A DNA stretch of 64,000 bases from a virus (lineage: Duplodnaviria > Heunggongvirae > Uroviricota > Caudoviricetes), in the IMG/VR virus record IMGVR_UViG_651053023_000001, positions 1 to 64,000 of that record. The stretch is one strand, 5' to 3'. Positions 436-50,679 of the stretch are shown one piece after another (positions within the stretch are counted from its first letter, which is position 1; every line of letters starts with the position of its first letter). The position numbers and the translations under genes were made by a program. The notes beneath the pieces are model-generated. The model searched no databases, had not been told where the DNA came from, and saw only the letters and a program-made list of their open reading frames with translations.

Positions 436-1467
436 ATGTCCAATTTACTGACCGTACACCAAAATTTGCCTGCATTACCGGTCGATGCAACGAGTGATGA
501 GGTTCGCAAGAACCTGATGGACATGTTCAGGGATCGCCAGGCGTTTTCTGAGCATACCTGGAAAATGCTTCTGTCCGTTTGCCGGTCGTGGGCGGCATGG
601 TGCAAGTTGAATAACCGGAAATGGTTTCCCGCAGAACCTGAAGATGTTCGCGATTATCTTCTATATCTTCAGGCGCGCGGTCTGGCAGTAAAAACTATCC
701 AGCAACATTTGGGCCAGCTAAACATGCTTCATCGTCGGTCCGGGCTGCCACGACCAAGTGACAGCAATGCTGTTTCACTGGTCATGCGGCGGATCCGAAA
801 AGAAAACGTTGATGCCGGTGAACGTGCAAAACAGGCACTGGCGTTCGAACGCACTGATTTCGACCAGGTTCGTTCACTCATGGAAAATAGCGATCGCTGC
901 CAGGATATACGTAATCTGGCATTTCTGGGGATTGCTTATAACACCCTGTTACGTATAGCCGAAATTTCCAGGATCAGGGTTAAAGATATCTCACGTACTG
1001 ACGGTGGGAGAATGTTAATCCATATTGGCAGAACGAAAACGCTGGTTAGCACCGCTGGTGTAGAGAAGGCACTTAGCCTGGGGGTAACTAAACTGGTTGA
1101 GCGATGGATTTCTGTCTCTGGTGTAGCTGATGATCCGAATAACTACCTGTTTTGCCGCGTCAGAAAAAATGGTGTTGCCGCGCCATCATCCACCAGCCAG
1201 CTATCAACTCGCGCCCTGGAAGGGATTTTTGAAGCAACTCACCGATTGATTTACGGGGCAAAAGATGACTCTGGTCAGCGATACCTGGCCTGGTCTGGAC
1301 ATAGTGCCCGTGTCGGTGCCGCGCGAGATATGGCCCGCGCCGGAGTTTCAATACCGGAGATCATGCAAGCTGGTGGCTGGACCAACGTAAACATTGTCAT
1401 GAACTACATTCGTAACCTGGATAGTGAAACGGGGGCAATGGTGCGCCTGCTGGAAGATGGCGATTAG
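436..1467 (+). CDS. cre: Cre tyrosine site-specific recombinase
   Basis: 343-aa ORF MSNLLTVHQNLPALPVDATSDEVRKNLMDMFRDRQAFSEHTWKML... ending ...MVRLLEDGD, recognised as P1 Cre; adjacent to loxP. Confidence 0.97.
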   Translation: MSNLLTVHQNLPALPVDATSDEVRKNLMDMFRDRQAFSEHTWKMLLSVCRSWAAWCKLNNRKWFPAEPEDVRDYLLYLQARGLAVKTIQQHLGQLNMLHRRSGLPRPSDSNAVSLVMRRIRKENVDAGERAKQALAFERTDFDQVRSLMENSDRCQDIRNLAFLGIAYNTLLRIAEISRIRVKDISRTDGGRMLIHIGRTKTLVSTAGVEKALSLGVTKLVERWISVSGVADDPNNYLFCRVRKNGVAAPSSTSQLSTRALEGIFEATHRLIYGAKDDSGQRYLAWSGHSARVGAARDMARAGVSIPEIMQAGGWTNVNIVMNYIRNLDSETGAMVRLLEDGD

Positions 1468-1517: not shown

Positions 1518-1829
1518 ATGAGAAAGGATTTCAACATCGACGGAAAATATGTAGTGCTGTCTGTAAGCACTAATATTCAGTCGCCAGCCGTCATTGTCAC
1601 TGTAAAGTTGAGCGACAGGATGCCTGATATTGACTCAATATCCGTTGCGTTCCCTGTCAAAAGTATGCGTAGTGCTGAACATTTCGTGATGAATGCCACC
1701 GAGGAAGAAGCACGGCGCGGTTTTGCTAAAGTGATGTCTGAGTTTGGCGAACTCTTGGGTAAGGTTAACAATGTCCTTTCAATCAGTTCAGCAAGGTCCA
1801 AAGCGTTAACAGCTTCCATGATGAAGTAA
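1518..1829 (+). CDS. hypothetical protein in the position of P1 cra
   Basis: 103-aa ORF directly after cre on the same strand; no recognisable motif; an antisense ORF of equal length overlaps it. Confidence 0.35.
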   Translation: MRKDFNIDGKYVVLSVSTNIQSPAVIVTVKLSDRMPDIDSISVAFPVKSMRSAEHFVMNATEEEARRGFAKVMSEFGELLGKVNNVLSISSARSKALTASMMK

Positions 1830-2070: not shown

Positions 2071-3183
2071 TCATTCAGCCGCCACCGGTTTTAACAAGCC
2101 AGCATCGAGCAGTTTACGCGTCAACCACTGCTGGCCTTTACCCGTTAATTGAGGCGTCAGCCGTATCTGATAGCCATCTTCATCATCCAGCACCACTTCT
2201 TTCACTGTGAAATATCCGGCGTTTATGTACTGCTGAAACGGTACATTTTTACGTCCGCCGGACGCAATCAGGATGCCGTTCTCCCGTAACCAGGCAAACA
2301 GCGCATTTTGCTTAAGTCCAACAACCTTTGCAAAATTCCCAATCAGGATCCCCTTAGCCACTGATACCCGGTCGGCAAAATCGACCTTAGGGGCTGCGGC
2401 CACCAGCTGCTGATTTAGCTGGTGGGCTTTCTGTTCCAGAAGTTGCTTTTGTTCAGCCAGCTCGGCAGCCAGGCGCAGAGCTTCGGGAAGCGTCTGAGGG
2501 ATTGCGACCGGTTGCTGTTCTTTTTGCCGGAAGTAGCTGTCTTCCAGTTTTTCAAAGAATGCCCATGCCTGATCGGTTTCGATCATTTTAGCGTGGCGGG
2601 CTGCGCCGCGTTCCGTCCAGAGAGTGAGGTTTCTGGCGTTCTTACCAACAGAGTTACTAAAAGTAACTCTGTTCTTAAATTCTCTTAATTTTGAACCAGT
2701 TAAAAGAAAGTAGTGTTTACCTTCTTCAAAGCGATCGGAGTTGCAAGACAAATTTTTACGAATATTGCCTTCATCGGTTCCGTACCCCTTAGCAAGAGTT
2801 TCGGTTGTTACGACACGTACTCCCTGCCATTCCAGAACGGGAATTTCATCCGGCTGATTTTGAACAACCACCAGCTCCGATTCCTGAACTGAAGGTGCAT
2901 GAATTTTTTCTGATTTAACGTTAGTTGCTTTCATTCTGTGTGCCTCCTTGCGTGCTTCGGCTGCGACGGTTGCGTAATTCAGATGACCCTGTTCGAGCAG
3001 GTATTCGCGGATATCAGACAACAGGATACGGTGAACCGCGTGTTTGTCCTTTCTCCGGTAAAGTTGTTTGGTGATCATGAAGTAGTTGGCAATAACGCCT
3101 GGTATATCCCTGGTGCTGATACAGGCAGTGTGCTGTTCAATTGCCTCGATCATCTCTTCACGGGTGACTAATGACGTTCTCAT
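2071..3183 (-). CDS. antirepressor-like protein, copy A (ORF6N/Bro-N-like N-terminal region plus KilA-C/ANT C-terminal domain)
   Basis: 370 aa; C-terminal ~150 aa (PQTLPEALRLAAELAEQK...KVDFADRVSVA...GKGQQWLTRKLLDAG) shared with the canonical Ant (47170..48213) and with KilA; preceded by an icd-like ORF overlapping by ATGA. Confidence 0.8.
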   Translation of the reverse strand: MRTSLVTREEMIEAIEQHTACISTRDIPGVIANYFMITKQLYRRKDKHAVHRILLSDIREYLLEQGHLNYATVAAEARKEAHRMKATNVKSEKIHAPSVQESELVVVQNQPDEIPVLEWQGVRVVTTETLAKGYGTDEGNIRKNLSCNSDRFEEGKHYFLLTGSKLREFKNRVTFSNSVGKNARNLTLWTERGAARHAKMIETDQAWAFFEKLEDSYFRQKEQQPVAIPQTLPEALRLAAELAEQKQLLEQKAHQLNQQLVAAAPKVDFADRVSVAKGILIGNFAKVVGLKQNALFAWLRENGILIASGGRKNVPFQQYINAGYFTVKEVVLDDEDGYQIRLTPQLTGKGQQWLTRKLLDAGLLKPVAAE

Positions 3184-3401: not shown

Positions 3402-3444
3402 AGTTACGGCCTCATGTACAGGTTTAACAACCTGCTACCCGCTG

Positions 3445-3525
3445 CTAAACGGGTGGCAGGACGTGACGGGGTTAGCAGACTGGCGTACATGAAACCAGCA
3501 GGCCGAAGCCTCCCCATCACGCCCC
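3445..3525 (-). ncRNA. c4-like antisense RNA, copy A (approximate bounds)
   Basis: Conserved leader block upstream of icd carrying a 6-nt element (ATGTAC in RNA sense) complementary to GTACAT overlapping the icd ribosome-binding site and to a second GTACAT further upstream. Confidence 0.4.
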
Positions 3526-3702
3526 ACCATAATTCGGGCGTAACGCGGTTTTACGGACATAAAAATACCGCAATATCGGAAATCTGCGGTTGTCCGCATG
3601 TACATTCAGGCTGCTAAACCCGGTCGCAGAATTTGCTACGACGTAGGAACTATAAGCCTGAACAACAGGAAGATCAATAGTCTGGCGTCCAATAGTAGTT
3701 TA

Positions 3703-3735
3703 TTTGCTCTAATAAATCAAATTTATTAGAGCAAT
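3703..3735. promoter_or_regulatory. overlapping head-to-head pair of C1 operator sites
   Basis: TTTGCTCTAATAAATCA on top strand and ATTGCTCTAATAAATTT on bottom strand, forming a palindrome. Confidence 0.65.
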
Positions 3736-3994
3736 AACAATCTAGTTGAATGTTTCCTCTCTGAGGTTGCAATGTGCACACTTAGTGCCTTATTTGTATG
3801 CACTAATAAATATATTATTTTTAACAATAAATAATTGACAACTGACAAGTGACTTCAGTCAGAATCATCACACGCCCGGTACGGATGGATCCCTTTTCAA
3901 ATATTCCATGGACGGCACAGTCTGAGTACCGGGCGCTACCTTAAGTTGTATTGCTAAGCCGCCGCTGGTGGCTTTTCTTTTTTGTAGGGGCGCT

Positions 3995-4636
3995 ATGGAT
4001 AAGAAAATATGCGTTGTTTCGATGAGCGTCGGCAAACCGGCGTCAATGACTGCTGCATGGATCAACAACGAGCTGATAATGGCTGAGCGGACCAGCTACC
4101 CTGAACGCCGCCGCGATATGGAACTCCAGCTGCTGCGCGAATTGCGAGAAAAAGAGGAAAAGGGTTTTATCGTGCTGGTGGAAGAGGAAAACAGCTTTAT
4201 TACTGGTCGAGTTGGCCAGCGTGTAAGGTTGCGCGATCCCTTCATGAACGGCAGGCCGGTACTAATTGAGGCCATGCAGATTTATAAGGAGCTGGAACGC
4301 CAGAAAGCAATCAAGTTACCGCGCAAGGAATCCGGCAAATACATCCTCCACCAAAGCATCTTCGATTCCGAACACGACAAAAAAGGCGATGAATTTTTCA
4401 ACATCAACTGGAGCGAAATAACGACAGAGCATGTTCTGACGTTACTATGTTGCTTTGCGACGGAATACAACAACGTTGCCAGCGCAGACTACATCAGGGC
4501 AATGGCTGGAGAAGTTGAGGCACGCCAGGAACCATCGTTACTAAGCCCTCTGATTAACATAATTCGCGGCACACAGAGACTTGCGGAAAAAAGCGTTCCA
4601 CACGGAATCTTAACTGGGAAGGGAAACTATTTTTAA
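3995..4636 (+). CDS. hypothetical protein (core of the inverted-repeat structure)
   Basis: ORF from ATG at 3995 (track ORF starts 3968) with AGGGG 5 nt upstream; no family recognised by eye. Confidence 0.5.
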   Translation: MDKKICVVSMSVGKPASMTAAWINNELIMAERTSYPERRRDMELQLLRELREKEEKGFIVLVEEENSFITGRVGQRVRLRDPFMNGRPVLIEAMQIYKELERQKAIKLPRKESGKYILHQSIFDSEHDKKGDEFFNINWSEITTEHVLTLLCCFATEYNNVASADYIRAMAGEVEARQEPSLLSPLINIIRGTQRLAEKSVPHGILTGKGNYF

Positions 4637-4669: not shown

Positions 4670-4987
4670 TTACAATAGCTGCCCCATACATTGTCTCCAG
4701 GCACTCCCCTCATTACCGTTATCAAGAAACGTAGAGGTTGCATAAGGAATGCCTCTGATTTGTGTTGATGTGAATGGACCATCAGACGTCGAAGTTGTGC
4801 GCAGTTTTGATGTAAACTCGTAATTTCCACTGATGCCTTTCTCTGCCAGAGCTTTTGATTTTGTGATAACTAAATCTGCACATTTCTCTGCGGCTACATA
4901 TTGCGGGTCTTTTTCAGCTTTTCCGGCACATGCAGTTATCGTTAAAACGATAGCTGCGGCTAACAAATTACCTAGTTTCATCTGCAT
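4670..4987 (-). CDS. small lipoprotein (signal peptide with lipobox LTITAC)
   Basis: 105 aa; N-terminal MQMKLGNLLAAAIVLTITAC is a typical lipoprotein signal peptide with cysteine; two further Cys in the mature part. Confidence 0.55.
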   Translation of the reverse strand: MQMKLGNLLAAAIVLTITACAGKAEKDPQYVAAEKCADLVITKSKALAEKGISGNYEFTSKLRTTSTSDGPFTSTQIRGIPYATSTFLDNGNEGSAWRQCMGQLL

Positions 4988-5086: not shown

Positions 5087-5120
5087 ATTGCTCTAATAAA
5101 TTTGATTTATTAGAGCAAAT
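5087..5120. promoter_or_regulatory. overlapping head-to-head pair of C1 operator sites
   Basis: ATTGCTCTAATAAATTT (perfect consensus) at 5087..5103 and its partner ATTTGCTCTAATAAATC on the bottom strand at 5104..5120. Confidence 0.65.
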
Positions 5121-5294
5121 ATCCTACCATTGCGCATAGCCCTATTGATCTCCTTACCGTTCAGGCTTATATTCATGCCGTCGTAGCAAATTCTGCGACC
5201 GGGTTTAGCAGCCTGAATACTTACGCGGACAACCGCAGATATCCGATATTGCGGTATTTTCATGTCCGTATAACCACGTTACGCCCGAATTATG

Positions 5295-5375
5295 GTGGGG
5301 CGTGATGGGGAGGCTTCGGCCTGCTGGTTTCGTAAGTGCCAGTCTGCTAACCCCGTCACGTCCTGCCACCTGTTT
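5295..5375 (+). ncRNA. c4-like antisense RNA, copy B (approximate bounds)
   Basis: Same conserved block as copy A but the 6-nt element is GTAAGT, complementary to ACTTAC at the icd ribosome-binding site (5404..5410) and at 5219..5225. Confidence 0.4.
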
Positions 5376-5420
5376 AGCAGCGGGTCGCAGGTTGTTTTAT
5401 CAACTTACGAGGCCGTAACT

Positions 5421-5642
5421 ATGGTTAATGCCAATCCTTGCGCACGCCCTGAATTTATCTGGCGCTTTTACTCCTGCCAAAAACGTCACTATCACTTCGT
5501 TATTGCACCAACAGAAGATGAGGCCCGCTCTCAGCTTCCTGACGCCCCATGTATTTTCTCTGCCCGCTTTTCTACCGATTCGCGCAATTCTCTCAGTTAC
5601 TGGTGCCTCCCTGTTAACGCTTCTGCTCAGGAGGGGCTATGA
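5421..5642 (+). CDS. Icd-like small protein, copy B
   Basis: 73 aa from ATG 5421 (track ORF 5292..5642 carries an unsupported N-terminal extension); one residue differs from copy A; overlaps the ant start. Confidence 0.7.
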   Translation: MVNANPCARPEFIWRFYSCQKRHYHFVIAPTEDEARSQLPDAPCIFSARFSTDSRNSLSYWCLPVNASAQEGL

Positions 5643-6757
5643 GAACGTCATTAGTCACCCGTGAAGAGATGATCGAGGCAATTGAACAGCACACTGCCTG
5701 TATCAGCACCAGGGATATACCAGGCGTTATTGCCAACTACTTCATGATCACCAAACAACTTTACCGGAGAAAGGACAAACACGCGGTTCACCGTATCCTG
5801 TTGTCTGATATCCGCGAATACCTGCTCGAACAGGGTCATCTGAATTACGCAACCGTCGCAGCCGAAGCACGCAAGGAGGCACACAGAATGAAAGCAACTA
5901 ACGTTAAATCAGAAAAAATTCATGCACCTTCAGTTCAGGAATCGGAGCTGGTGGTTGTTCAAAATCAGCCGGATGAAATTCCCGTTCTGGAATGGCAGGG
6001 AGTGCGTGTAGTGACAACCGAGACTCTTGCTAGAGGGTATGGGACAGAAACAATCCGTATTCGCCAAAATCATCATGAGAACAAAGTACGCTTTGTTGAA
6101 GGGAAGCACTTTTTCAAAGTTGAAGGAGAATCATTGCGCGAGTTGAAGCACAGAGTAGCTTTAAACTACTCTGTAAAAATTGCTCGCAATGTTCGCTCAC
6201 TCACCCTCTGGACAGAACGCGGCGCAGCCCGCCACGCTAAAATGCTCGAAACCGATCAGGCATGGGCATTCTTTGAAAAACTGGAAGACAGCTACTTCCG
6301 GCAAAAAGAACAGCAACCGGTTGCAATCCCCCAGACGCTTCCAGAAGCTCTGCGCCTGGCTGCCGAACTGGCTGAACAAAAGCAGCTTCTGGAACAGAAA
6401 GCCCACCAGCTAAATCAGCAGCTGGTGGCCGCCTCTCCTAAAGTCGATTTTGCCGACCGGGTATCAGTAGCTAAAGGGATCCTGATTGGGAATTTTGCAA
6501 AGGTTGTTGGTCTTAAGCAAAACGCGCTGTTTGCCTGGTTACGGGAGAACGGCATCCTGATAGCGTCCGGTGGACGTAAAAATGTGCCGTTCCAGCAGTA
6601 CATCAATGCGGGATATTTCACGGTGAAAGAAGTGGTGCTGGATGATGAAGATGGCTACCAGATACGGTTGACGCCTCAATTAACGGGTAAAGGCCAGCAG
6701 TGGTTGACGCGTAAACTGCTCGATGCTGGCTTGTTAAAACCGGTGGCGGCTGAATAA
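5639..6757 (+). CDS. antirepressor-like protein, copy B
   Basis: 372 aa; identical to copy A over the first ~131 aa and the C-terminal ANT/KilA-C domain, with a divergent patch between. Confidence 0.8.
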   Translation: MRTSLVTREEMIEAIEQHTACISTRDIPGVIANYFMITKQLYRRKDKHAVHRILLSDIREYLLEQGHLNYATVAAEARKEAHRMKATNVKSEKIHAPSVQESELVVVQNQPDEIPVLEWQGVRVVTTETLARGYGTETIRIRQNHHENKVRFVEGKHFFKVEGESLRELKHRVALNYSVKIARNVRSLTLWTERGAARHAKMLETDQAWAFFEKLEDSYFRQKEQQPVAIPQTLPEALRLAAELAEQKQLLEQKAHQLNQQLVAASPKVDFADRVSVAKGILIGNFAKVVGLKQNALFAWLRENGILIASGGRKNVPFQQYINAGYFTVKEVVLDDEDGYQIRLTPQLTGKGQQWLTRKLLDAGLLKPVAAE

Positions 6758-6790: not shown

Positions 6791-6904
6791 AAATGTCTCT
6801 TCAGCACATTACCGAAGTTCAATCTTCAACCAAGAAGTGGACTCGCATACGATTATCGCAATAAAATACTTGAAGTTTTATAAACTGTGAGTATCATTAC
6901 CCAT

Positions 6905-7360
6905 ATGAAAACATCCTATTTAACTATATTGGCTTTCCATATTCGCGATTTTCGCGAGAAGCATGGTGTTACTCAATCAGACATTGCATCTGGCCTTGGG
7001 ATAACAAGTGCCGGCTGGGGAAAAATTGAAAATGGTAAGTCCTCTCTCTCTGTAGAGAATATGATGAAATTCTGTAAAATCATTAATATTGATGCAACCA
7101 TACTTCTTGATATTTCCACAAAATCGGCAAAAAACTTAATCAAATGTGGATGGAGTGTATCTTATTCTCCTGTTGAGGATGATAATTTAATAGACGGAAA
7201 AAATATATTTGCTAAAACACATGGAATGAATAACGTTATGAGGAAATTTATAGACGGGAAACTTGGAAGTGTTTTAGACAAAGAATTTGATGATATTATT
7301 ATGAAATATGCAACATTTTATATGGTTGTAGCTAAAAATCTAAGAGATGACTTGATTTAA
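6905..7360 (+). CDS. XRE-family helix-turn-helix protein with C-terminal domain of unknown function
   Basis: HTH signature GVTQSDIASGLGITSAGWGKIENGKSSLSVENMMKF; AT-rich codon usage; start taken at ATG 6905 (track ORF begins at GTG 6887). Confidence 0.6.
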   Translation: MKTSYLTILAFHIRDFREKHGVTQSDIASGLGITSAGWGKIENGKSSLSVENMMKFCKIINIDATILLDISTKSAKNLIKCGWSVSYSPVEDDNLIDGKNIFAKTHGMNNVMRKFIDGKLGSVLDKEFDDIIMKYATFYMVVAKNLRDDLI

Positions 7361-7375
7361 AAATGGAGTGTACAT

Positions 7376-8128
7376 ATGGCATACAGAAAAGACAGCGATC
7401 TTGAATTCCTAGCTAAATGTAGCGACCGTGATCTTGATGATTTAGTTAACCTATTGATTTATGATAACGATGGCAAAAAAAGATGGACTGAAGAGTTATC
7501 TAACAATCGACAATATAAGGAATTTGCACCAAGACATAGCGTATATTGGAGAGAAATTGCTGCTGAAATTCAATGTTATGGTGGAAATACCATAGCAACT
7601 CTCTTGCGTGGTGGTAAAGGGGTCTGCTACAGAGAAATTCTCATTGATGTATGCAATAAGCTAAAGGTTAATTTCAATGCCAAGAGCCGAATAGAGGTTA
7701 TTGAACAAAATCTTCTATTAAAAATTCTCAGCGACTCTCTAGATAACATGTCATCCGAAGATATAAAAGTTTTTGCCATGGAACTTGGATTGGATGAAGT
7801 TACAAGATTTACTCCTGAGGCAGTTCTATCTGCCTTCCAATATATTTTCAGGGCCGGCGGTTTCAGATCTTATCAGGTAACTCTTAAATTTGCGAATCTT
7901 TTACTAAAAATTTTAATTGGACGCGGTTTAACACTCGCAGGTAATCAAATACTCGTAAAAGCATTATCTATTTTAACAGGCCCAATTGGTTGGGCTATAA
8001 CAGCCGCATGGACCATTGTAGATGTGGGAGGAACTGCTTATCGAGTAACAATTCCTGCTGTTATTCAAGTTGCTGTACTAAGGGCGAAAGTCAATAATAA
8101 TATTAAAGACAGCGATATTACCTTGTGA
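7376..8128 (+). CDS. hypothetical 250-aa protein with C-terminal hydrophobic segment; candidate effector of a two-gene accessory cassette
   Basis: ATG with GGAG 7 nt upstream, 15 bp after the HTH gene; hydrophobic stretch LTGPIGWAITAAWTIVDVGG near the C-terminus; AT-rich. Confidence 0.65.
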   Translation: MAYRKDSDLEFLAKCSDRDLDDLVNLLIYDNDGKKRWTEELSNNRQYKEFAPRHSVYWREIAAEIQCYGGNTIATLLRGGKGVCYREILIDVCNKLKVNFNAKSRIEVIEQNLLLKILSDSLDNMSSEDIKVFAMELGLDEVTRFTPEAVLSAFQYIFRAGGFRSYQVTLKFANLLLKILIGRGLTLAGNQILVKALSILTGPIGWAITAAWTIVDVGGTAYRVTIPAVIQVAVLRAKVNNNIKDSDITL

Positions 8129-8922: not shown

Positions 8923-11900
8923 TTATGCGTATTGTTGGATGACGGCCAGAACGTCCGCCACGTTGTGTTTTGTCTCGATAATCCACCAGTTACCCGGGAA
9001 ATCGCTGTTCTTCGCCTTCGCTGGCAGCCAGCGAGCGCCGAATTTCGCCTTGATTGCGTCTTTCGCACGGAAAAGAACGCCTTTCATGCCTGAGGCTTCC
9101 TGAAGCCCAAATACCTCGCCAGCGGCGAATTTTGGTGCGTACATCATCTTCAGGTCGGCGGTGGATACGCGATAATTCAGACCAAGAGACTGAGCTATGC
9201 TGGTGGCATCACCCTGTATTGATGATAACTCTTCTTGTTTCTCGTTTCTGGCGGCAATCTCTTCCTCCGTGATGTTGCCAAGGGCCAGGTTTATCCGATC
9301 AGCGTCGGCCTGTTTCTCTTCATCGGTGCGCCCGGCAAGAACCGTGTTAATTCTCTGCAATATCTCCACATGATTCTTGCGCATGCTGAGCAATTCCGGC
9401 GTAACCTCGTTAAGATCCACCAGCCCAAGGATGGCAAGGTCGGAAAACATTGATACCAGGTTGTAGGTCATGCGATAGCTGAGTTGACCATAGGCTGATG
9501 GCAACTTCACCGCATCCATTTGATAGGCATCCATAAATTTAGAGCCGTCGTTTACGACATCCGCTATTGCAGGTGTGATTTTCCCTGTGGTGGCGGCCTC
9601 CCTGATTGCTGTTACCCACGATTGAGTCAGCGCGGCGACTGCATGATTCAGATTGGCTTCCCGTTCTGCTGCGATGCGCGCGCTTGCTGCGTCCATTGCC
9701 TGCTTGATCTCGGCTTTATTGCTGTAAATGCCAATGGTGCCAAACTGTGCTGTGGTGATCTCATAATCTGACGCCCGGAACTCATGGGTACCGAAAATAG
9801 CATTGGTGACCTCAAGTTCAGAGTCCCCGTTACGAGTAGCCCCCTGGCTTGTTTTCTCCGGCATTTTGGCGATCGAATCCGCTATTTTCTCCTGAAGTGC
9901 TTCAGGGGATAGCGTATCTCCGTATGACGCGATTACATCGCCATAATTGGAGCCAAACAGTTCAGTCAGGAATACTTCTGCCAAACGGACCTGGCGGTTA
10001 TTCCCTTCCGACATCATACCAAGCACCCATTTTGCAATTGACGACTTCAGCGCGCCGTCACGGCGATCCGGGTAAACCGCATGCTTCAGTGGGTCCGTAT
10101 AGGTACCAACAAAATCAATGCTATAGCCTGACTCTGTAGTCTGAACGCCGTATGAGTCAGTGATTTTGATCATGCCGCGCTGCTGGAAACGGTAGAAATC
10201 GTCACAGGAAATGATGTCGTTAATCCCGGCGATGGAGACGCCACCACTGATTTTCTGCATAACAGCATCTTCATCGGGAGTTACATCCACCTGTTTATCC
10301 AGCGTCTTCACATCCCAGTTACCCGATTTGGTGCCTTTGAAGGTAAAGATGATCTCCACGTCTGCGCGCTGGCTGTCGAAGTCCAGCGACTTAATGCGAA
10401 CGATATCACCGGCACAATCGTAGTATTGGCCTACACGCCATGAGCGATCGCCGATAACAAGGAACTCATTCGCATGGTTAACCATGTCAGGATCAATATC
10501 CAGAATGCCTTTATTTATTGCATCCTCCACCAGCGGGCGCAGGCGTTTGATATCCGTCGCGGCCTTCTGAGTACGGTTCAATAATTTCTCATAGCGTGAG
10601 ATGGCCTGAGAGATATTAGCCTTGCGCTGAATGGCGCTTTTCAACGACGCGCGATACTGTGCTAACAACATACGGTCTGTGTGATGGACACTCCCCCAGC
10701 GGGCCTTCCAGTCTGCGTTATCCGCTGCCTTGGCCATTGCCGCCTGTTTGAATTTAGCTACCTCGGCGGTGGTCTTTTCAAGTTCCGCTTTGCTTCGCTC
10801 TAATTCAGCGGTAAGTACCTCCACATCCTCGCCAGCTGCGTGCTGCGCCTTGATGTAGTTCTGAAGGTCGATAGTAGCCTGTTCTTTCTGGCGAGCGCGT
10901 TTCGCAGCTTTCGCCTTATCCATTTGAACCTGCATCATTGCCAGACGTTCGCCGTCATCCTTCGCGGTATACATCTGCATTTCGATCATGTCATTGGCGT
11001 CGGCGTTCTCCATTTCTGACTTATCTGAACGGAGGATATCGGAGATCCAGCCTGCTTTACGCTTCAGCGTCTTCAGTCGGTATTCATCGAAAGACCCCTT
11101 GCCGCAGTAGTAGTGAACGCGAACGCTTGCACGGTTGGAGCCAACTCGTGCACCGCGACCGTTACGTTGTGCGATACTGGCTGGTGTCCACGGCAACGTC
11201 AGGTGGTGGATATCCGTCGTTCCTCGATGCAGGTTGATACCCACCTCTGCCTTTTTGTTGCAGATGATGATCGGAGTCCGGCCCTCCTGGAAGTCGGCTG
11301 CAATCTTTTCCAGACCGCCCAACGACATTTCATTTTGCTGCGCGATATAGGCGTCATACAGAGCCATTTGCTCGTTGTATTTCGCTATCTGTGCATCTGT
11401 TGGTTCATCCGGTAGCTCTTTCGGCGGTTTAACCGCTTTCAGTTTCTTACCGGTTTTACCTGCCTCGGCAACCGTCTGAGCATTCAGGATCCCCACCTTT
11501 GAAGGTTCAAGGTTTAGAGCATTGCAGATAATGCGCTTGAGCTTCTGGTGCTGCGTTTTTTCATCGGTGAAGATGATTTGCTTACCTTCCGGGAAAAACT
11601 CCTTCAGCGTGGCGATCAGCTTCGCGTATTTGGGCGTAACGGGGTGAGTTACGGTCTGTTCGTCAATGCCAAACCTGGCCAGTCGCTTATTCACTTCCTG
11701 CTCGAACGCTTCCGGAACCTGCAACTGAATAAACTCGCCCTTATCTATCAGGGAGTATTGCGATTGCTGCGTGATTGAATCATCACTGTCGTCGTATTCG
11801 CTGGTGGCTTGTTTAGGCAAACTGTCCGCCAGCTGCTGCACCGCATCGGCGTACTCCGGCAGGAAACGATAGGTGATCCGGCGATAGTACAGGTCCATGT

Positions 11901-14900
11901 CAGTACATACGCGGTCCATATCCCTGATTATTGAGAAGATCGGACGGGCTTTCTCGTGCTCAATCACGCCGTCTTCATTGACCGAGGTCGTTACGCCATT
12001 GTTGGCTTTGGCCGCCGCTTCCGCCTGCTGACGCAATTCTTCATACGCCGCCAGTTGTTCTTCAGTAAGTGGTGCATCCTGCTGGTGTTCGTCCAGCTCC
12101 GGGATCTCCACGGTATCCTTAACGTCTTCCGCCGTTTTAAGCGTTACCCAGCGATGGAATATACCGCGCAGCGCATCAAGGTTTTCAAAGCCCACCAGCG
12201 CCATTTTTTCTTCAACTTCACCGCTGATTTTCTGTACCGTTTCCAGCCTGGTCTTGCCGAAGAATTTAACGAAGTCATCAGGACCGTAGATCCCCATGTT
12301 CTGCCAGTATTCCTTCGGCAGAACATGAGAAAGCATGTTGTATGCATCGATCGGGGTGTTAACGACTGGCGTTGCAGTCAGGAGAACCGGCCCGCGCCCG
12401 CCATTCTTTTTCATCAGGTACGCGTTTTTAATTGCCATATCTCGCGCCGATTGCGCCACCGCGCTGGTGGGCAGATAGGCCAGTTGTGACGCTTCGCGAC
12501 CATTTTTATAGCTATTGCGGTAGTTGTGACCTTCGTCAGCGATCACACTATCGAAGCCCATATCCTCAAAGTACGGATACTTCTCTGCTTTTTCGGTGCC
12601 GGTATCTGAATACTCCGACAATACCCGGCGACGCGCGGCCTCTTTGCGGTGGGAGTCGGAGTCCATTGCGCTGGCTACGCGTCCGGCGGCAACGAAGTCA
12701 TAAAGCATATCCTGTGCATGCTCATCTACGGTGTCATCACGTAGCGGAATGCGGGCGTATTGTTCTTTGGTAAACACGACTGCACGGTAATTTGAGTGCG
12801 GGATCGCGTTCATCCGCGCCGTGATAGTGGCTTCATCTGCCAGCTTAAGAGCATCGCGCATAACTGGAGTGCCATCAGTACCAAGAACAGGTTTACCGTT
12901 CTCATCGAGCACCGGCACCTGGCGAATCTGATCGCCATCCATCAGCACATCAAGACCGACGAACAGGTAGTTACTGAATGCCTCTTCACTCAGAAACTCT
13001 TTTGCTTCGTAATACCAGTTTTCCAGCACTGATTTAGGCACTACATACGCAGTACGGGTGGAACGACCGTTCTCATAGTTGAACGCCTCAAGCGCCAGCG
13101 CGGTCGTGGTTTTACCCAGCCCGGTGCCGAAGCCCAGGATGCCGCGCCCATCTTCGGACAGTCGGCGCACCTCGCTATTCTGGTAATCAAATGGCTGGCG
13201 CTTACCGCTTAATCCCTTCAACCCAAGCGGATCGCCAGAGTGTTCATACGGGATATTGCTATTGAACACATCGTTGTATTTGGCAACCAGCTCATCGTAG
13301 CGATCGTGCGTCTTGATCCACTTATTGAACTGGTCCTCAAGCAGTGCCATCTGCTCGCGGTAGCCGTTAGCCGTCGCGCTATCTTTGCCACCGATACGCG
13401 CACCATTGAGATACTTTTCCAGCTGTGCCGGGAACCCGGTCGCGTTTTCACCTGATTTACGGTCCCACTCGTAGCGGATCTCGCCTGTTTCTTTATCCTT
13501 GCGCTGGACGACACCGTATCGGTGCCCGACGAACAGACCATCACCACCGTGATAGGTGTCAGAAACCATTTCGTCGCCTTCAAGCTGCACTGACTGCACA
13601 TAGCGCAGATCCGGATAGCCGTTTTCCTGCAAAAATTCCAGAATGACGGAACGGTCGAACCAACGGCTATTGAGCTTAAACCGGATATTCTCTGCTGGCG
13701 TCTTGATGCGCTTCTCTTCGATCGCTGCCAGCTGATTAAGGACGTTGTTCTTTACTGGACCGTCGGGGAGCGTGGCGAGGAATTCCTGTTTTGGAGCCAC
13801 TATCTCGTTAATGTCGCCGCTGGTGGCGCGGGCGAACGGAACAATCCCGCCATACGGTGAAACCGCAATACCAGGGGTGCTGGCCAATAAATTAAGCAAC
13901 TCTTCATCACTGGCTGGCAGTTCGCCGGTAAACGCAAGGCGGAAATCATCGAGCTGGATTGGATCGCGAGTGAGATCACTGTAGAGATAACGCAGGGTGT
14001 CCTGATAGCTGGTGGAGTCATAACTTGCGCTGGAATCATGCGTAACCAGCTTTCCTGTCAGCTCGTCAGAAATAGTGCCATCCAGCTTAATTGCACCACG
14101 GAAAGCAAACCAGGCGCGCGCACCGCTCCCCGATAATTTCGCTATCGGGCCGCGACCGGGGTTACCAAAACGGTCAATCTCTGCCTGCAAACGGGATACC
14201 AGAGAAAGGCGCTGCTGTTCGATTTGTTCAGCACTATGCCCGGCGGCCTTCATGTCCTGATATTCAATTAACATCCGGCCAATCATCGCCCCGCGATACA
14301 AGCGTTCACGGTATTTTTCAGGCTGGCTGTTAATCCAGTCCACCAGCTGCACCATATCGTCGCTGATTGATGTGGTGTACTTATCGCGGACATTTGCCAT
14401 CTGGGTAAATGTCATGCCGAGACGGCCTTCTGTTGTAGTCAGGTTACGCTGAAGAGCCTCCCAGCTATCCGCGCCATAACTGGCAGCATCGATCTTAAGT
14501 TCCTTCCCGGCATCAGCTTCAATCCAGCGACCACCAGCATATTTTTGCCATACGCCATTAATCAGGCGCATTTCCCCTTCATCAACAACATCTGCGGTCG
14601 GTGACGGTTCAGCCATATCGAGCAAAGACCAGTCGATACGACTTTCGAAACGATGAATCAGCTTCGCTTTAAGAGCCTGGTTATCAATCTGCCCGTCGGC
14701 ACGAACCTCAATACGCCCCTGGAAGCCCTTTTCCTGGGTACCATGAACAAACCGGCGACCGTCCTTTTCAAACCACTTGCCAGAAATAAACGTTGGCCAA
14801 AGCACATTTGCCGATTCAAGAGTGCTTTCATCCACCAGGGGGATTTTCTCAGCCATCTCCGCCGGATGTTTGCGCATCAGCACCACATCAACGACTGTAC

Positions 14901-15690
14901 TGGTCCCGTTTGCGTCAAAAGTACCGGTAGGCAAGCGGTGAGCGCCAAGAAATTCAGCTTTACGGGATAGGCGCAGGCGTAACCGCTTCATGTTTGAACC
15001 TGAAACAATGGACGGCGGCACAATCACGCACATGAATCCGCCTGGCTTTATCTTGTCCAGCATGCGGAGCATGAAGTAAGAACCCATGTCCGTTTCTTCT
15101 GCGTAAGGCTTATCGATGTTGCGTGTGTTATCACGACCACCGAACGGAACGTTACCCACAACATGGTCGAATGAATCGTTAGGCGTGCTTACAGCCAATT
15201 GTTCGAACGGGGAAATCTGTACGCTGTCTTCCGGGTGTAACAGCTGGTTTATACGACCGGAAACACTGCTGATCTCAGTCGCGGTCATCACCGTACCAAC
15301 CGGTTTTGTCTCATTAAAAACGCCGGTTCCCGCCGATGGTTCCAGAGTGTTACCTACGTCCGCGCCGTAGAGCTTCATGATCTCCCAGACGCCTTCAGCG
15401 ATCGGCTTTGGTGTGTAATATTCGGAGACGGACCCGCCAATGCCGCCTTCACCAGTGTACCCGGCCAGGATCTGGCGCTGTTCATCTGTCAGTGTCGCGC
15501 CGTCCACCAGCGAATTAAGCAAATCTATCGCCTTCTGATTCGCCTCCCGGCGCAGTCGGTCATAGCTTTTGCCTTCCACCTTTTCCACGCCGTATTTAAT
15601 CGGCGCTCGGTGAGATGTTATTGCCCTAATGTATTTCAATATTTCGCTGACACTTGAACAGCGAAACACCCCCATAGATAGCTTGTTCAT
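8923..15690 (-). CDS. darB: DarB antirestriction protein (N6-adenine methyltransferase-like plus helicase domains)
   Basis: 2255 aa (P1 DarB length); methyltransferase-like VGNVPFGG motif near the N-terminus; helicase Walker A GFGTGLGKTTTALAL and DEGH box. Confidence 0.9.
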   Translation of the reverse strand: MNKLSMGVFRCSSVSEILKYIRAITSHRAPIKYGVEKVEGKSYDRLRREANQKAIDLLNSLVDGATLTDEQRQILAGYTGEGGIGGSVSEYYTPKPIAEGVWEIMKLYGADVGNTLEPSAGTGVFNETKPVGTVMTATEISSVSGRINQLLHPEDSVQISPFEQLAVSTPNDSFDHVVGNVPFGGRDNTRNIDKPYAEETDMGSYFMLRMLDKIKPGGFMCVIVPPSIVSGSNMKRLRLRLSRKAEFLGAHRLPTGTFDANGTSTVVDVVLMRKHPAEMAEKIPLVDESTLESANVLWPTFISGKWFEKDGRRFVHGTQEKGFQGRIEVRADGQIDNQALKAKLIHRFESRIDWSLLDMAEPSPTADVVDEGEMRLINGVWQKYAGGRWIEADAGKELKIDAASYGADSWEALQRNLTTTEGRLGMTFTQMANVRDKYTTSISDDMVQLVDWINSQPEKYRERLYRGAMIGRMLIEYQDMKAAGHSAEQIEQQRLSLVSRLQAEIDRFGNPGRGPIAKLSGSGARAWFAFRGAIKLDGTISDELTGKLVTHDSSASYDSTSYQDTLRYLYSDLTRDPIQLDDFRLAFTGELPASDEELLNLLASTPGIAVSPYGGIVPFARATSGDINEIVAPKQEFLATLPDGPVKNNVLNQLAAIEEKRIKTPAENIRFKLNSRWFDRSVILEFLQENGYPDLRYVQSVQLEGDEMVSDTYHGGDGLFVGHRYGVVQRKDKETGEIRYEWDRKSGENATGFPAQLEKYLNGARIGGKDSATANGYREQMALLEDQFNKWIKTHDRYDELVAKYNDVFNSNIPYEHSGDPLGLKGLSGKRQPFDYQNSEVRRLSEDGRGILGFGTGLGKTTTALALEAFNYENGRSTRTAYVVPKSVLENWYYEAKEFLSEEAFSNYLFVGLDVLMDGDQIRQVPVLDENGKPVLGTDGTPVMRDALKLADEATITARMNAIPHSNYRAVVFTKEQYARIPLRDDTVDEHAQDMLYDFVAAGRVASAMDSDSHRKEAARRRVLSEYSDTGTEKAEKYPYFEDMGFDSVIADEGHNYRNSYKNGREASQLAYLPTSAVAQSARDMAIKNAYLMKKNGGRGPVLLTATPVVNTPIDAYNMLSHVLPKEYWQNMGIYGPDDFVKFFGKTRLETVQKISGEVEEKMALVGFENLDALRGIFHRWVTLKTAEDVKDTVEIPELDEHQQDAPLTEEQLAAYEELRQQAEAAAKANNGVTTSVNEDGVIEHEKARPIFSIIRDMDRVCTDMDLYYRRITYRFLPEYADAVQQLADSLPKQATSEYDDSDDSITQQSQYSLIDKGEFIQLQVPEAFEQEVNKRLARFGIDEQTVTHPVTPKYAKLIATLKEFFPEGKQIIFTDEKTQHQKLKRIICNALNLEPSKVGILNAQTVAEAGKTGKKLKAVKPPKELPDEPTDAQIAKYNEQMALYDAYIAQQNEMSLGGLEKIAADFQEGRTPIIICNKKAEVGINLHRGTTDIHHLTLPWTPASIAQRNGRGARVGSNRASVRVHYYCGKGSFDEYRLKTLKRKAGWISDILRSDKSEMENADANDMIEMQMYTAKDDGERLAMMQVQMDKAKAAKRARQKEQATIDLQNYIKAQHAAGEDVEVLTAELERSKAELEKTTAEVAKFKQAAMAKAADNADWKARWGSVHHTDRMLLAQYRASLKSAIQRKANISQAISRYEKLLNRTQKAATDIKRLRPLVEDAINKGILDIDPDMVNHANEFLVIGDRSWRVGQYYDCAGDIVRIKSLDFDSQRADVEIIFTFKGTKSGNWDVKTLDKQVDVTPDEDAVMQKISGGVSIAGINDIISCDDFYRFQQRGMIKITDSYGVQTTESGYSIDFVGTYTDPLKHAVYPDRRDGALKSSIAKWVLGMMSEGNNRQVRLAEVFLTELFGSNYGDVIASYGDTLSPEALQEKIADSIAKMPEKTSQGATRNGDSELEVTNAIFGTHEFRASDYEITTAQFGTIGIYSNKAEIKQAMDAASARIAAEREANLNHAVAALTQSWVTAIREAATTGKITPAIADVVNDGSKFMDAYQMDAVKLPSAYGQLSYRMTYNLVSMFSDLAILGLVDLNEVTPELLSMRKNHVEILQRINTVLAGRTDEEKQADADRINLALGNITEEEIAARNEKQEELSSIQGDATSIAQSLGLNYRVSTADLKMMYAPKFAAGEVFGLQEASGMKGVLFRAKDAIKAKFGARWLPAKAKNSDFPGNWWIIETKHNVADVLAVIQQYA

Positions 15691-46620: not shown

Positions 46621-46637
46621 CCTGCTCTAATAAATTT
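46621..46637 (+). promoter_or_regulatory. C1 operator-like site upstream of the canonical immI module
   Basis: CCTGCTCTAATAAATTT, 2 mismatches to consensus. Confidence 0.5.
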
Positions 46638-46824
46638 GTATTTTTAAGTCGCGAATGCTATCTTTTCGCATCATATTGACCTTTTAATCGTTCAGGCTTA
46701 TAGTTTCGCCGTCGTAGCAAATTCTGCGACCGGGTTTAGCAGCCTGAATGATTGTGCGGACAGCCGCAGATATCCGATATTGCGGTATTTTTGTGTCCGT
46801 AAAACCGCGTTACGCCCAAATTAT

Positions 46825-46905
46825 GGTGGGGCGTGATGGGGAGGCTTCGGCCTGCTGGTTTCACAATCGCCAGTCTGCTAACCCCGTCACGTCCTGCCAC
46901 CTGTT
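46825..46905 (+). ncRNA. c4: c4 antisense RNA of the canonical immI region (approximate bounds)
   Basis: Conserved leader block with element ACAATC complementary to GATTGT at the icd ribosome-binding site (46933..46939) and at 46750..46756. Confidence 0.45.
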
Positions 46906-46951
46906 TAGCAGCGGGTAGCAGGTTGTTAAACCTGATTGTGAGGCCGTAACT

Positions 46952-47173
46952 ATGGTTAATGCCAATCCTTGCGCACGCCAAGAATTCATCTGGCGTTTCT
47001 ATTCCTGCAAAAAACACCACTATCACTTCGTCATCGCAGCAACAGAAGACGAAGCACGCTCTCAATTGCCTGATGGCCCCTGCATTTTTACTGCCCGTTT
47101 TTCAACTAACTCGCGCAATTCACTTAGTTACTGGAACCTCCCCTTCTCTGCCGACGTTCAGGGGGGTTTATGA
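46952..47173 (+). CDS. icd: Icd (interference with cell division) small protein
   Basis: 73-aa ORF MVNANPCARQEFIWRFYSC... overlapping the ant start, downstream of the c4 leader. Confidence 0.75.
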   Translation: MVNANPCARQEFIWRFYSCKKHHYHFVIAATEDEARSQLPDGPCIFTARFSTNSRNSLSYWNLPFSADVQGGL

Positions 47174-48213
47174 AAAAACCTCTCGTCACCCGTAATGAAA
47201 TAGCCGAAGCGATCGCCCTGCATACAACCTGTATGCCGACACGGGAGATCCCCGGCGCAATTGCCAACTATTTCATGATAACCAGGCGTTTTTATACCCG
47301 AACAGATAAGGCTGTGATCAACAAGCTACTGATAGCCGAGATCAGGGATTATTTGATTGAACAAGGACGTCTACGTTACGCAACAGTGGCAGCAGAAATA
47401 AGAAAGGAGGCACATAGAATGACCGGTAATAATTTGAATGTTGAAAAAACAGCACCTGTTACGTCAGCTACGCCAGCACCAGCCGTGAATATCATCCCCA
47501 ACACCGGAGACACAATCGACAGCCAAACATTGTTGAAGATGGTCAATGAGGCACGCAAGTTATGTGGAGAACCAGAGGTTAGAAACAATAAATTCATCGA
47601 AAAAATACTCGATGAACTTGAAGGTGAATTTTACACAAAAAGTGCAAAATCCCATGGCACAAGGGCTGGGCGCTCTTTTGAGGTCATCACCATGACCTAC
47701 AAACAAGCCCTGCGAGTTGCCGCGCGCGAGTCAAAAGCGGTCCGCCGTTCGCTGATCGACAAACTGGAAGAATTACAGCAGGCAAACTCCCCTACCCCAT
47801 CGATCCCCCAGACATTACCAGAAGCCCTACGCCTGGCTGCCGAGTTAGCAGAACAGAAAATGCAGTTGGAACAACAGCTGGTGGCCGCAGCCCCTAAAGT
47901 CGATTTTGCCGACCGGGTATCAGTGGCCAATGGAATCCTGATCGGGAACTTTGCAAAGGTCGTTGGACTTAAGCAAAACGCCCTTTTCTCATGGTTGCGC
48001 CAGAATGGCATTCTCATGGCTTTTGGAGCGCGCAAAAACGTACCGCGCCAACAGTACATCAACGCCGGGTATTTCACGGTGAAAGAAGTGGTGCTGGATG
48101 ATGAAAATGGCTACCAGATACGGCTGACGCCCCAATTAACGGGTAAAGGCCAGCAGTGGTTAACTCGCAAGCTACTTGATGCTGGTTTGTTAAAACCAGT
48201 AGCAATAGGTTAA
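47170..48213 (+). CDS. ant: Ant antirepressor (canonical immI copy)
   Basis: 347 aa with KilA-C/ANT C-terminal domain; followed by kilA-repL as in P1. Confidence 0.85.
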   Translation: MKKPLVTRNEIAEAIALHTTCMPTREIPGAIANYFMITRRFYTRTDKAVINKLLIAEIRDYLIEQGRLRYATVAAEIRKEAHRMTGNNLNVEKTAPVTSATPAPAVNIIPNTGDTIDSQTLLKMVNEARKLCGEPEVRNNKFIEKILDELEGEFYTKSAKSHGTRAGRSFEVITMTYKQALRVAARESKAVRRSLIDKLEELQQANSPTPSIPQTLPEALRLAAELAEQKMQLEQQLVAAAPKVDFADRVSVANGILIGNFAKVVGLKQNALFSWLRQNGILMAFGARKNVPRQQYINAGYFTVKEVVLDDENGYQIRLTPQLTGKGQQWLTRKLLDAGLLKPVAIG

Positions 48214-50349: not shown

Positions 50350-50429
50350 TACAATCGTTGCGGGTGCTTGAGGCTATCAGCTTCAGGCATTACCCGAAAA
50401 GCAGATAGAAGAAAGCCCCAGATAACATT

Positions 50430-50500
50430 ACGCGTCCTGCAAGACGCTTAACATTAATCTGAGGCAATATCTATGCTTAGCATACGTAGATTAGCCTCTT
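50430..50500 (-). ncRNA. putative Sok-like antisense RNA (position inferred)
   Basis: Inferred only from hok/mok architecture, where the antitoxin RNA is antisense to the mok start region; not delimited from sequence. Confidence 0.25.
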
Positions 50501-50679
50501 ACCGACCAAAAGGTCAAGGAGTAGCAGGCTATGAAGCAGCAAAAAGCGATGTTAATCGCTCTGATCGTCATCTGTTTAACCGTCATTGTGACGGCACTGG
50601 TAACGAGGAAAGACCTCTGCGAGGTACGAATCCGAACCGCCCAGACGGAGGTCACTGTCTTCACAGCCTACGAATCTGA
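50473..50679 (+). CDS. mok: Mok-like overlapping reading frame
   Basis: 68-aa ORF overlapping nearly all of hok in another frame, as in hok/sok loci. Confidence 0.5.
   Translation: MLSIRRLASYRPKGQGVAGYEAAKSDVNRSDRHLFNRHCDGTGNEERPLRGTNPNRPDGGHCLHSLRI

Follow-up and report, generated by a model that had tools for sequence, protein, structure and literature searches.

The stretch of DNA analysed here (the window; 64,000 nt, positions 1 to 64,000 of IMG/VR record IMGVR_UViG_651053023_000001) is that of a P1-like phage-plasmid, and carries cre, cra and darB plus a canonical ImmI operon with kilA (46.7-49.2 kb). P1-like phage-plasmids are common in Escherichia coli and spread resistance genes, and their switch between lysis and lysogeny is run through C1, C4 and Ant. 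Two inverted repeats, each a complete ImmI-like c4-icd-ant cassette, occupy the interval from cra to the lxc/ulx/darB block of the window. The antirepressor homologues encoded by the two cassettes, AntA and AntB, differ over one central patch. This difference is real and well delimited. Its most apt description is allelic mosaicism of a modular phage regulator, and its history is opposite to the one first proposed for it.

Organization of the two-arm locus

The two cassettes (arms A and B, each about 1.7 kb) flank mat in inverted orientation, and each runs in the order C1 operator, promoter, a1b1 targets, C4 RNA, a2b2 targets, icd and ant1/2 (Table 1). The icd and ant genes overlap in both arms, icd ending at 3180 and ant starting at 3183 in arm A, and at 5642 and 5639, respectively, in arm B. 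In antA, an Ant2-like in-frame start preceded by AAGGAGG lies at codon 84 (M84), the same codon as that of P1 ant2. The ant stop codons mark the ends of the repeats, and a separate terminator-like hairpin is present in each arm. AntA and AntB share an N-terminal region and a KilAC domain with the canonical Ant of P1 and P7. Their central regions, in which both proteins are of ORF6N type, do not align with that of the canonical Ant of the window, which is P1-type and has no ORF6N match.

Table 1. Positions of the features of the two-arm locus and of the canonical ImmI operon in the window (+ and -, strand; aa, amino acids; nt, nucleotides).
Feature	Position	Strand	Remarks
cre	436-1467		
cra	1518-1829		
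antA, ORF6N-type antirepressor homologue, 370 aa	2071..3183	-	Ant1 start at 3183; PF10543 + PF03374
Nucleotide-divergent block, arm A	2615..2818	-	
Amino-acid-divergent codons, arm A (132-186)	2626-2790	-	
422-nt exact identity, arm A copy	3240-2819	-	3' end of icd + ant codons 1-121
icd homologue, arm A, 73 aa	3180..3401	-	Icd-like annotation in related plasmids
b2 target, arm A	3414..3419	-	GTACAT; directly upstream of icd ribosome-binding site
C4 antisense RNA, arm A	3449..3534	-	RF01695, 71.7 bits
a', arm A	3478-3472	-	CTGCTAA
b', arm A	3490-3485	-	ATGTAC
b1, arm A	3603-3598	-	GTACAT
a1/b1 target element, arm A	3603..3655	-	RF03163, 53.2 bits
Perfect C1 operator, head of arm A	3719..3735	-	ATTGCTCTAATAAATTT; 17-mer match
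mat (maturation control)	3968..4636	+	Unique segment between arms; annotated so in related plasmids
105-aa open reading frame, lipoprotein-like N-terminus	4670..4987	-	Unique segment between arms
Perfect C1 operator, head of arm B	5087..5103	+	ATTGCTCTAATAAATTT; 17-mer match
a1/b1 target element, arm B	5167..5219	+	RF03163, 54.6 bits
b1, arm B	5219-5224	+	ACTTAC
C4 antisense RNA, arm B	5288..5373	+	RF01695, 70.8 bits
b', arm B	5332-5337	+	GTAAGT
b2, arm B	5403-5408	+	ACTTAC; directly upstream of icd
icd homologue, arm B, 73 aa	5421..5642	+	Stop overlaps ant start
422-nt exact identity, arm B copy	5582-6003	+	3' end of icd + ant codons 1-121
antB, ORF6N-type antirepressor homologue, 372 aa	5639..6757	+	PF10543 + PF03374
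Nucleotide-divergent block, arm B	6004..6213	+	
Amino-acid-divergent codons, arm B (132-188)	6032-6202	+	
darB	8923-15690	-	
Canonical ImmI operon (a1b1, C4, icd, ant1/2), comparator	46698..48213	+	P7-type a and b elements
Canonical ImmI b1, b', b2	46750-46755, 46863-46868, 46934-46939	+	

AntA and AntB differ over a sharply bounded patch

Pairwise alignment of the two proteins showed that residues 1-131 are identical, that divergence begins at residue 132 (K132/R132) and extends to about residue 186 in AntA or 188 in AntB with an indel of two residues, and that the proteins are about 99% identical beyond this point. Only two substitutions lie past the patch, I/L at alignment column 203 (I201 of AntA) and A/S at column 266 (A264 of AntA). 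The initial annotation had described a divergent stretch of about 55 aa following 131 identical residues, with a 2-aa length difference, and had placed it at 2628-2781 in arm A and at about 6041..6205 in arm B; both the extent and the position hold. The further statement that the copies are otherwise identical holds for the proteins but fails for the DNA, of which only 422 nt are truly identical.

At the nucleotide level, identity along ant runs at 100%, then 56% and then 95%. Upstream of the identical tract, the c4/icd part is 88.7% identical between the arms and the c4 region 85%. Within the patch, the 55 divergent codons of arm A share 56% nucleotide and 49% amino acid identity with arm B, and the indel is of 6 nt and in frame, leaving both reading frames open. 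Thus, the segment is indeed a substituted one, and the alignment reveals a true mosaic with a homologous, in-frame patch. The remaining 184 codons at the 3' end of ant are 95.3% identical, with 24 synonymous differences. Synonymous divergence (dS, Nei-Gojobori) in the 5' zone, the patch and the 3' zone is 0, 1.85 and 0.21, and the corresponding non-synonymous divergence (dN) is 0, 0.51 and 0.005. The arms differ at 82 of 210 positions in the divergent block and at 25 of 541 in the 3' part (Fisher p = 3e-30), compared with none of 422 in the 5' part (p = 9e-7 against the 3' part), so the zone boundaries are highly non-random. Furthermore, the GC content of the patch is 37% in arm A and 41.5% in arm B, and that of the flanks is 48-53%.

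The patch lies within the ORF6N domain

Both proteins match the ORF6N profile (PF10543) almost from end to end (profile positions 3-86 of 86; AntA 70.9 bits at residues 116-200, AntB 70.0 bits; cutoff 27.8), and both match the ANT/KilAC profile (PF03374; AntA 112.2 bits at residues 258-359, AntB 108.7 bits; cutoff 25.3). The patch therefore does fall in an ORF6N-like segment, as had been supposed. DNA binding is a property predicted for this family. Eight of the patch residues (Y134, N144, N148, F152, G155, H157, G163 and L166), all at least 90% conserved in an alignment of 40 sequences of the ORF6N family, are shared by A and B; the patch region is the most variable part of that family. Because both alleles match the whole profile and keep the family-conserved residues, the patch, as judged from sequence, is allelic variation inside ORF6N and not a swap of domain type, contrary to the domain swapping originally envisaged.

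An AlphaFold model of residues 100-225, built with 40 diverse homologues, reached a predicted local distance difference test (pLDDT) score of 79 and a predicted template modelling (pTM) score of 0.70. A full-length model built from 16 close relatives gave a pLDDT of only 30-40 in the ORF6N region and was unusable. In AntA numbering, the model predicts two short strands at 117-126, helices at 127-134 and 138-147, a strand at 158-162, a helix at 163-171, a low-confidence loop at 172-184, a strand at 185-189 and helices at 191-201 and 204-223. The predicted fold is a MerR-like winged helix, in which the patch would run from the end of helix 1 through the turn, helix 2, the wing and helix 3 and take in the variable loop. 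In MerR-type folds, helix 2 is the recognition helix. Both alleles look like folded, functional domains whose differences would fall on the likely contact-making elements. Neither the protein nor the family profile gave a significant hit when the PDB was searched by sequence.

The two arms match cassettes of different plasmids

Most P1-like plasmids have one arm only. In pTA13-2 and pE2865-1 the order is cre, cra, a left cassette whose ant, icd and c4 lie on the minus strand, and mat, the cassette occupying the place held by ref elsewhere, and in pSvP1 and p321-pO111 the order is cre, cra, ref, mat, the 105-aa open reading frame, c4, icd, ant, and the genes for a helix-turn-helix (HTH) protein and a DUF3944 protein. 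Arm A matches the pTA13-2 cassette at 100% along its entire length of approximately 1.7 kb. The counterpart of arm B is the pSvP1 cassette, which it matches at 100% over the c4 region, codons 122-131 and the patch, and at 99.3% over the 3' part. The exceptions are 10 sites between module positions 545 and 890, where arm B has the base of arm A and pTA13-2, and pSvP1 differs. Since arm A equals the pTA13-2 cassette, and arm B that of pSvP1 except in this putative conversion tract, the 422-nt identity appears to be derived and the patch to be the ancestral allelic difference. This inverts the earlier picture of a localized replacement inside an identical repeat.

Very probably, then, two old alleles from different P1-like plasmid lineages were brought together and later partly homogenised. 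The union of two such lineages would account for cassettes inverted around mat, with the left one of pTA13-2 type, at the place of ref, and the right one of pSvP1 type. Gene conversion over 346-422 nt would subsequently have overwritten arm B with the sequence of arm A between the 3' end of icd and ant codon 121, and the tract would have ended, at 2819/6003, where sequence identity collapses. The difference between the copies is in all probability ordinary phage mosaicism and not a fresh swap inside a duplicate.

Patch alleles in the wider population

Ant genes were gathered for comparison from 79 IMG/VR loci, from the window and from the two-arm plasmid pMTY1886. Among the P1-like Ants of this sample, the central ORF6N part falls into at least seven discrete allele classes. 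Recombinants with breakpoints inside the patch also occur, one joining a B first half to a D-like second half and another, protein P0004, joining A and A'. In an alignment of 43 distinct full-length ORF6N Ants from P1-like contigs, column entropy averages 0.91 bits over residues 132-186 and 0.08 bits elsewhere. In nine allele pairs, the dS of the patch is 1.8- to 14-fold above the larger of the flank values, and in a tenth pair the patch dS is saturated. A second small variable block lies directly past the patch (AntA 198-207, ~2563-2592; HAKMIETDQ against MSKIVDTNE). It is found in other loci too, where it moves with some patches (the A' and F classes) and not with others.

The wider ORF6N pool was represented by 2597 homologues found at E <= 0.001. 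Within the patch, A and B are 45.6% identical to each other but reach 61% and 68% identity with unrelated ORF6N representatives, whereas their flanks are 98% identical mutually and only about 61% identical to those same representatives. Because patch dS is raised, GC content is shifted and A and B are each closer to unrelated representatives than to one another, we infer that the patch alleles are old lineages from a wide ORF6N pool, set in a backbone kept homogeneous by recombination. Positive selection in situ after a duplication was considered and rejected, as dS is raised along with dN and each arm is a cassette found alone elsewhere.

The patch alleles reassort with C4 types and with genomic positions, and no linkage was found between patch allele and C4 b type, although pattern matching missed b' in many of the loci. 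A true exchange of domain type at the same locus is seen in p88_19539-1, where the left Ant (354 aa; locus L085, 2072-3136) has a P1-type centre and not ORF6N. ORF6N-type Ant cassettes also stand between pacB and c1 in many P1-like contigs (L025, 2518-4119; L008, L021, L024, L039, L044, L003 and L009), where an isrK-like RNA (RF01394) and a C4 RNA lie ahead in place of the a1b1 element. The pacB-c1 site is a third genomic position for this Ant family, with a different leader. More broadly, a match to the locus of the window was found in 927 of 5426 complete E. coli genomes, with a median of three matching places per genome having any match to the 5.9-kb two-arm query.

C1 itself is 96.8-100% identical across the 51 contigs in which c1 lies next to an Ant cassette, whichever of the patch alleles the cassette carries (at least seven). 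Co-variation of C1 with the patch alleles was looked for in these contigs and was not seen. Since C1 is nearly invariant across alleles, the variable partner of the patch is probably not the element's own C1.

C4 antisense circuits and C1 operators

The C4 RNAs of both arms score well above the RF01695 gathering score of 45. When the three C4 regions of the window were aligned with those of P1 and P7, using the sites annotated in AF234172, an a element of P7 type (TTAGCAG, a' CTGCTAA) proved common to all three cassettes. Each cassette has its own matched pair of b hexamers, GTACAT/ATGTAC in arm A, ACTTAC/GTAAGT in arm B and GATTGT/ACAATC, the P7 type, in the canonical operon; the b element of P1 is GTTAGT. 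Other contigs carry the further b types ACGAAT and ACTTGT, the latter seen at the two-arm locus of p88_19539-1, and b types reassort with both patch alleles and Ant head types. As b2 adjoins the icd ribosome-binding site and the b types differ, control of the cassettes is predicted to be largely independent, and the three C4 circuits on this one plasmid are expected to be heteroimmune to one another, or insulated at least in part.

The 17-mer of the C1 operator has five matches in the window, compared with 0.02 expected. The perfect operators at the heads of arms A and B sit in near-palindromic pairs (3690-3735 and 5087-5132), each with promoter-like hexamers just downstream, whereas the canonical ImmI operator (46621-46637) is single and has two mismatches. 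These arrangements suggest tighter C1 control of the extra Ant cassettes than of canonical ImmI. Because a perfect operator heads each of them, both extra cassettes should be silent in a lysogen.

What the patch may do

The explanation that we favour as a whole, with a confidence only a little past an even chance, is that old alleles were partly homogenised and that the ORF6N core sets the specificity of the Ant head. The functional component, that the patch determines recognition by this head of DNA or of a partner protein, is drawn from the predicted fold and is put forward tentatively, as something a little short of an even chance. Under this model, the target of the ORF6N head, be it DNA or some protein apart from the resident C1, would be set by the patch, and the generic Ant activity would come from the conserved N-terminal 130 residues and the KilAC domain. 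Given their own b', b1 and b2 hexamers and a perfect C1 operator, the two Ants would be expected to be repressed in a lysogen and released independently. The initial annotation had suggested that the patch could alter the target specificity of each antirepressor. In so far as the patch lies on likely contact elements of the predicted fold, this stands, but a change of repressor target in particular is weakened by the near-constancy of C1 across at least seven alleles.

Several points weigh against this explanation. First, the role given to the ORF6N core in the choice of target has the predicted fold as its basis. Second, patch dN/dS is 0.14-0.33 in the nine allele pairs with finite dS, below 1 and thus without a direct sign of positive selection, and deep ancestry alone could also come from neutral import. 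Third, the direction of conversion depends on two reference plasmids only, one of which, pSvP1, has a mosaic icd of its own (module positions 399-498), so that a more complex history of exchange between plasmids is possible. Finally, with the a element common to all three cassettes, C4 cross-talk may be only reduced.

Of the alternatives, the one that fares best is that the polymorphism is functionally neutral, the alleles drifting and recombining and the A/B difference having no phenotype. A dN/dS below 1 throughout the patch would be expected under such a model, as would the high variability of the same region across the ORF6N family and the free reassortment of patch alleles with C4 types and genomic positions. 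It accounts less well for the persistence of discrete, old allele classes on a nearly invariant background (an entropy ratio of about 11), and the rise in dS indicates more than relaxed constraint. Furthermore, the residues that determine the fold are strictly kept, and the variable positions lie not in a linker but in the predicted recognition helix, wing and third helix. We therefore regard neutrality as rather unlikely, though it has to be taken seriously.

A second alternative is an arms race, in which the patch would be a surface seen by a host defence sensor or by an anti-Ant factor of a competitor, and its alleles would be held by frequency-dependent selection. The maintenance of many allele classes, the frequent presence on one plasmid of several Ant cassettes with different patches (compare the median of three matching places per E. 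coli genome), the apparent import of patches from the wider ORF6N pool and the invariance of C1 are all compatible with it. However, no candidate sensor or inhibitor was identified, the neighbouring mat and HTH/DUF3944 pair included, and the patch dN/dS is below 1. This alternative is, in our view, unlikely.

Less probable again is that an inverted duplication yielded two identical Ants and that a local replacement in one copy then changed its repressor target. The identity of the proteins on both sides of the patch does resemble that of a recent duplicate, the patch is a genuine homologous substitution, and P1 Ant is annotated as working through an Ant1/Ant2/C1 complex. Nevertheless, the 24 synonymous differences in the 3' half (dS 0.21) and a c4 region that is only 85% identical do not fit a fresh copy. 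Moreover, each arm is identical or nearly so to a cassette that stands alone in another plasmid, the sole truly identical stretch is the conversion tract, and C1 scarcely varies among contigs of differing patch alleles. For the history of the locus, this explanation is already contradicted.

An artefact, whether a compensating pair of frameshifts, a sequencing error or a mis-assembled collapsed repeat, has practically no chance of being the cause: beyond the general risk of assembling 1.7-kb inverted repeats nothing points to it, the 6-nt indel is in frame, the 82 differences are spread across the 210-nt block, both alleles match the ORF6N profile end to end, and independent records repeat both the alleles (A at >=99% identity in 10 other plasmid records, B in 83, as well as in IMG/VR contigs) and the two-arm architecture (complete plasmids pMTY1886, LH50-c and p88_19539-1). 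Equally negligible is targeted hypermutation, for example by a diversity-generating retroelement with one arm as template; a variable stretch between identical sequence in two repeats has a superficial likeness to a template/variable repeat pair, but the bases of arm A at the differing sites (A 31, T 21, C 15, G 9) show no adenine bias in either direction, all types of substitution are present, there is a 6-nt indel, and identical alleles are fixed at >=99% identity in many plasmids.

A broader reading, which we think unlikely, takes the favoured explanation further. The ORF6N core would be a swappable specificity cassette which, together with the reassorting C4 b code, would give combinatorial antirepressor modules, several to a plasmid, each repressed by C1, insulated by antisense RNA and aimed at different targets, such as the repressors or operators of competing prophages. 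As part of the same reading, it may be noted that the 422-nt tract lies between the C4 region and the patch. Speculatively, a crossover there would invert the mat segment and re-pair the C4 RNAs with the Ant heads, yielding new combinations in one step, and could have been a route to the reassortment of C4 and patch seen in the population. The mat segment had the same orientation as in the window in the three two-arm plasmids inspected, inversion isomers not having been searched for systematically.

If the core does set Ant recognition, patch allele and C4 b type together would predict mutual induction and resistance among P1-like elements and prophages, whether they share a cell already or are newly arriving, and would also explain why plasmids gather two to four Ant cassettes. 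If it has no such role, the locus offers a clean, textbook example of phage mosaicism, with old alleles, a conversion tract halted at a boundary of divergence and reassorting modules.

Comparison with known systems

The extra cassettes resemble ImmI of P1 and P7 in their upstream C1 operator, in a C4 RNA whose a' and b' are complementary to a1/b1 and a2/b2, in the overlap of icd with the start of ant, in the nested Ant2 start at codon 84 and in the N-terminal region and KilAC domain of Ant. They differ in that their Ants carry ORF6N over the central ~100 residues, where the P1-type centre gives no Pfam match, in adjoining cre, cra and mat rather than the sim-kilA region, in having a perfect near-palindromic pair of operators instead of a single site, and in b elements (GTACAT and ACTTAC) of neither P1 nor P7 type. 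At the sequence level they thus have every ImmI feature except homology in the central region of Ant, C1 binding at their operators and the antirepressor activity of their Ants being putative.

Heteroimmunity of P1 and P7 was reportedly traced, by Citron and Schuster in 1990 and by Heinrich et al. in 1995, to compensated changes in C4 and its targets. In the window, likewise, the variable hexamers coincide exactly with the b1, b' and b2 sites as annotated, and complementarity is kept within each cassette. However, P1 and P7 differ in both a and b, whereas the three cassettes of the window differ in b only, and here three predicted specificities reside together on one plasmid.

Domain shuffling around KilAC, giving modular proteins with alternating N-terminal heads for which DNA binding is predicted, is said to have been described by Iyer, Koonin and Aravind in 2002. 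The window contains KilA with KilA-N, the canonical Ant with a P1-type region and AntA/AntB with ORF6N, which fits this scheme. Unlike it, the variation seen here is mostly at the level of alleles within one head family, with breakpoints inside the domain, and there is an additional Ant1-specific N-terminal region of ~100 residues. In the AriS-like proteins of Listeria (phage phi10403S), the generic activity lies in the conserved KilAC domain, and phage-specific regulation in an N-terminal head that alternates among AntA/B, Bro-N and pRha (PMC9043618).

Extra icd-ant homologues have been noted in region RD-1 of pSvP1 and, in RCS47/pTZ20_1P, an ant lying between pacB and c1 (Venturini et al., 2019; PMC6906374). 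The RD-1 cassette is the one that arm B matches at 100% in the c4 region and patch. That study lists the genes, whereas the hypervariable ORF6N core, the C4 b types and the inverted two-arm loci do not form part of it. A second c4-icd region has likewise been noted in D6-like plasmids (PMC6799933). The Gifsy prophages of Salmonella encode antirepressors that act in trans (Lemire et al., 2011; PMC3121763). The parallel lies in several antirepressor genes per cell, with prophage cross-talk as a plausible reason for variation, irrespective of any kinship of the Gifsy antirepressors to ORF6N/KilAC proteins. A literature search returned no account of a hypervariable ORF6N core, of the conversion tract or of the set of b types on one plasmid, although key older papers were out of reach and an earlier description is possible. 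Finally, an invertible segment of the Cin/C-segment type would have short crossover sites and a dedicated invertase; the arms here are complete 1.7-kb cassettes of 85-100% identity rather than short sites, and no invertase is annotated at the locus in related plasmids.

Neighbouring genes

The 105-aa open reading frame that adjoins mat begins with a lipoprotein-like signal sequence (MQMKLGNLLAAAIVLTITAC...) and gave no Pfam match. It is kept in plasmids that have the right-hand cassette, and travels with arm B in single-arm plasmids. Past arm B, genes for an HTH protein (157 aa, 6887-7360) and a DUF3944 protein (250 aa, 7376-8128) occupy the place of res/mod in P1. This pair also stands in region RD-1 of pSvP1, and may form a module for defence or addiction. 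Elsewhere in the window, a sok antitoxin RNA (50362-50536; RF01794, 109.7 bits) lies downstream of repL, implying that a hok/sok addiction module is present there.

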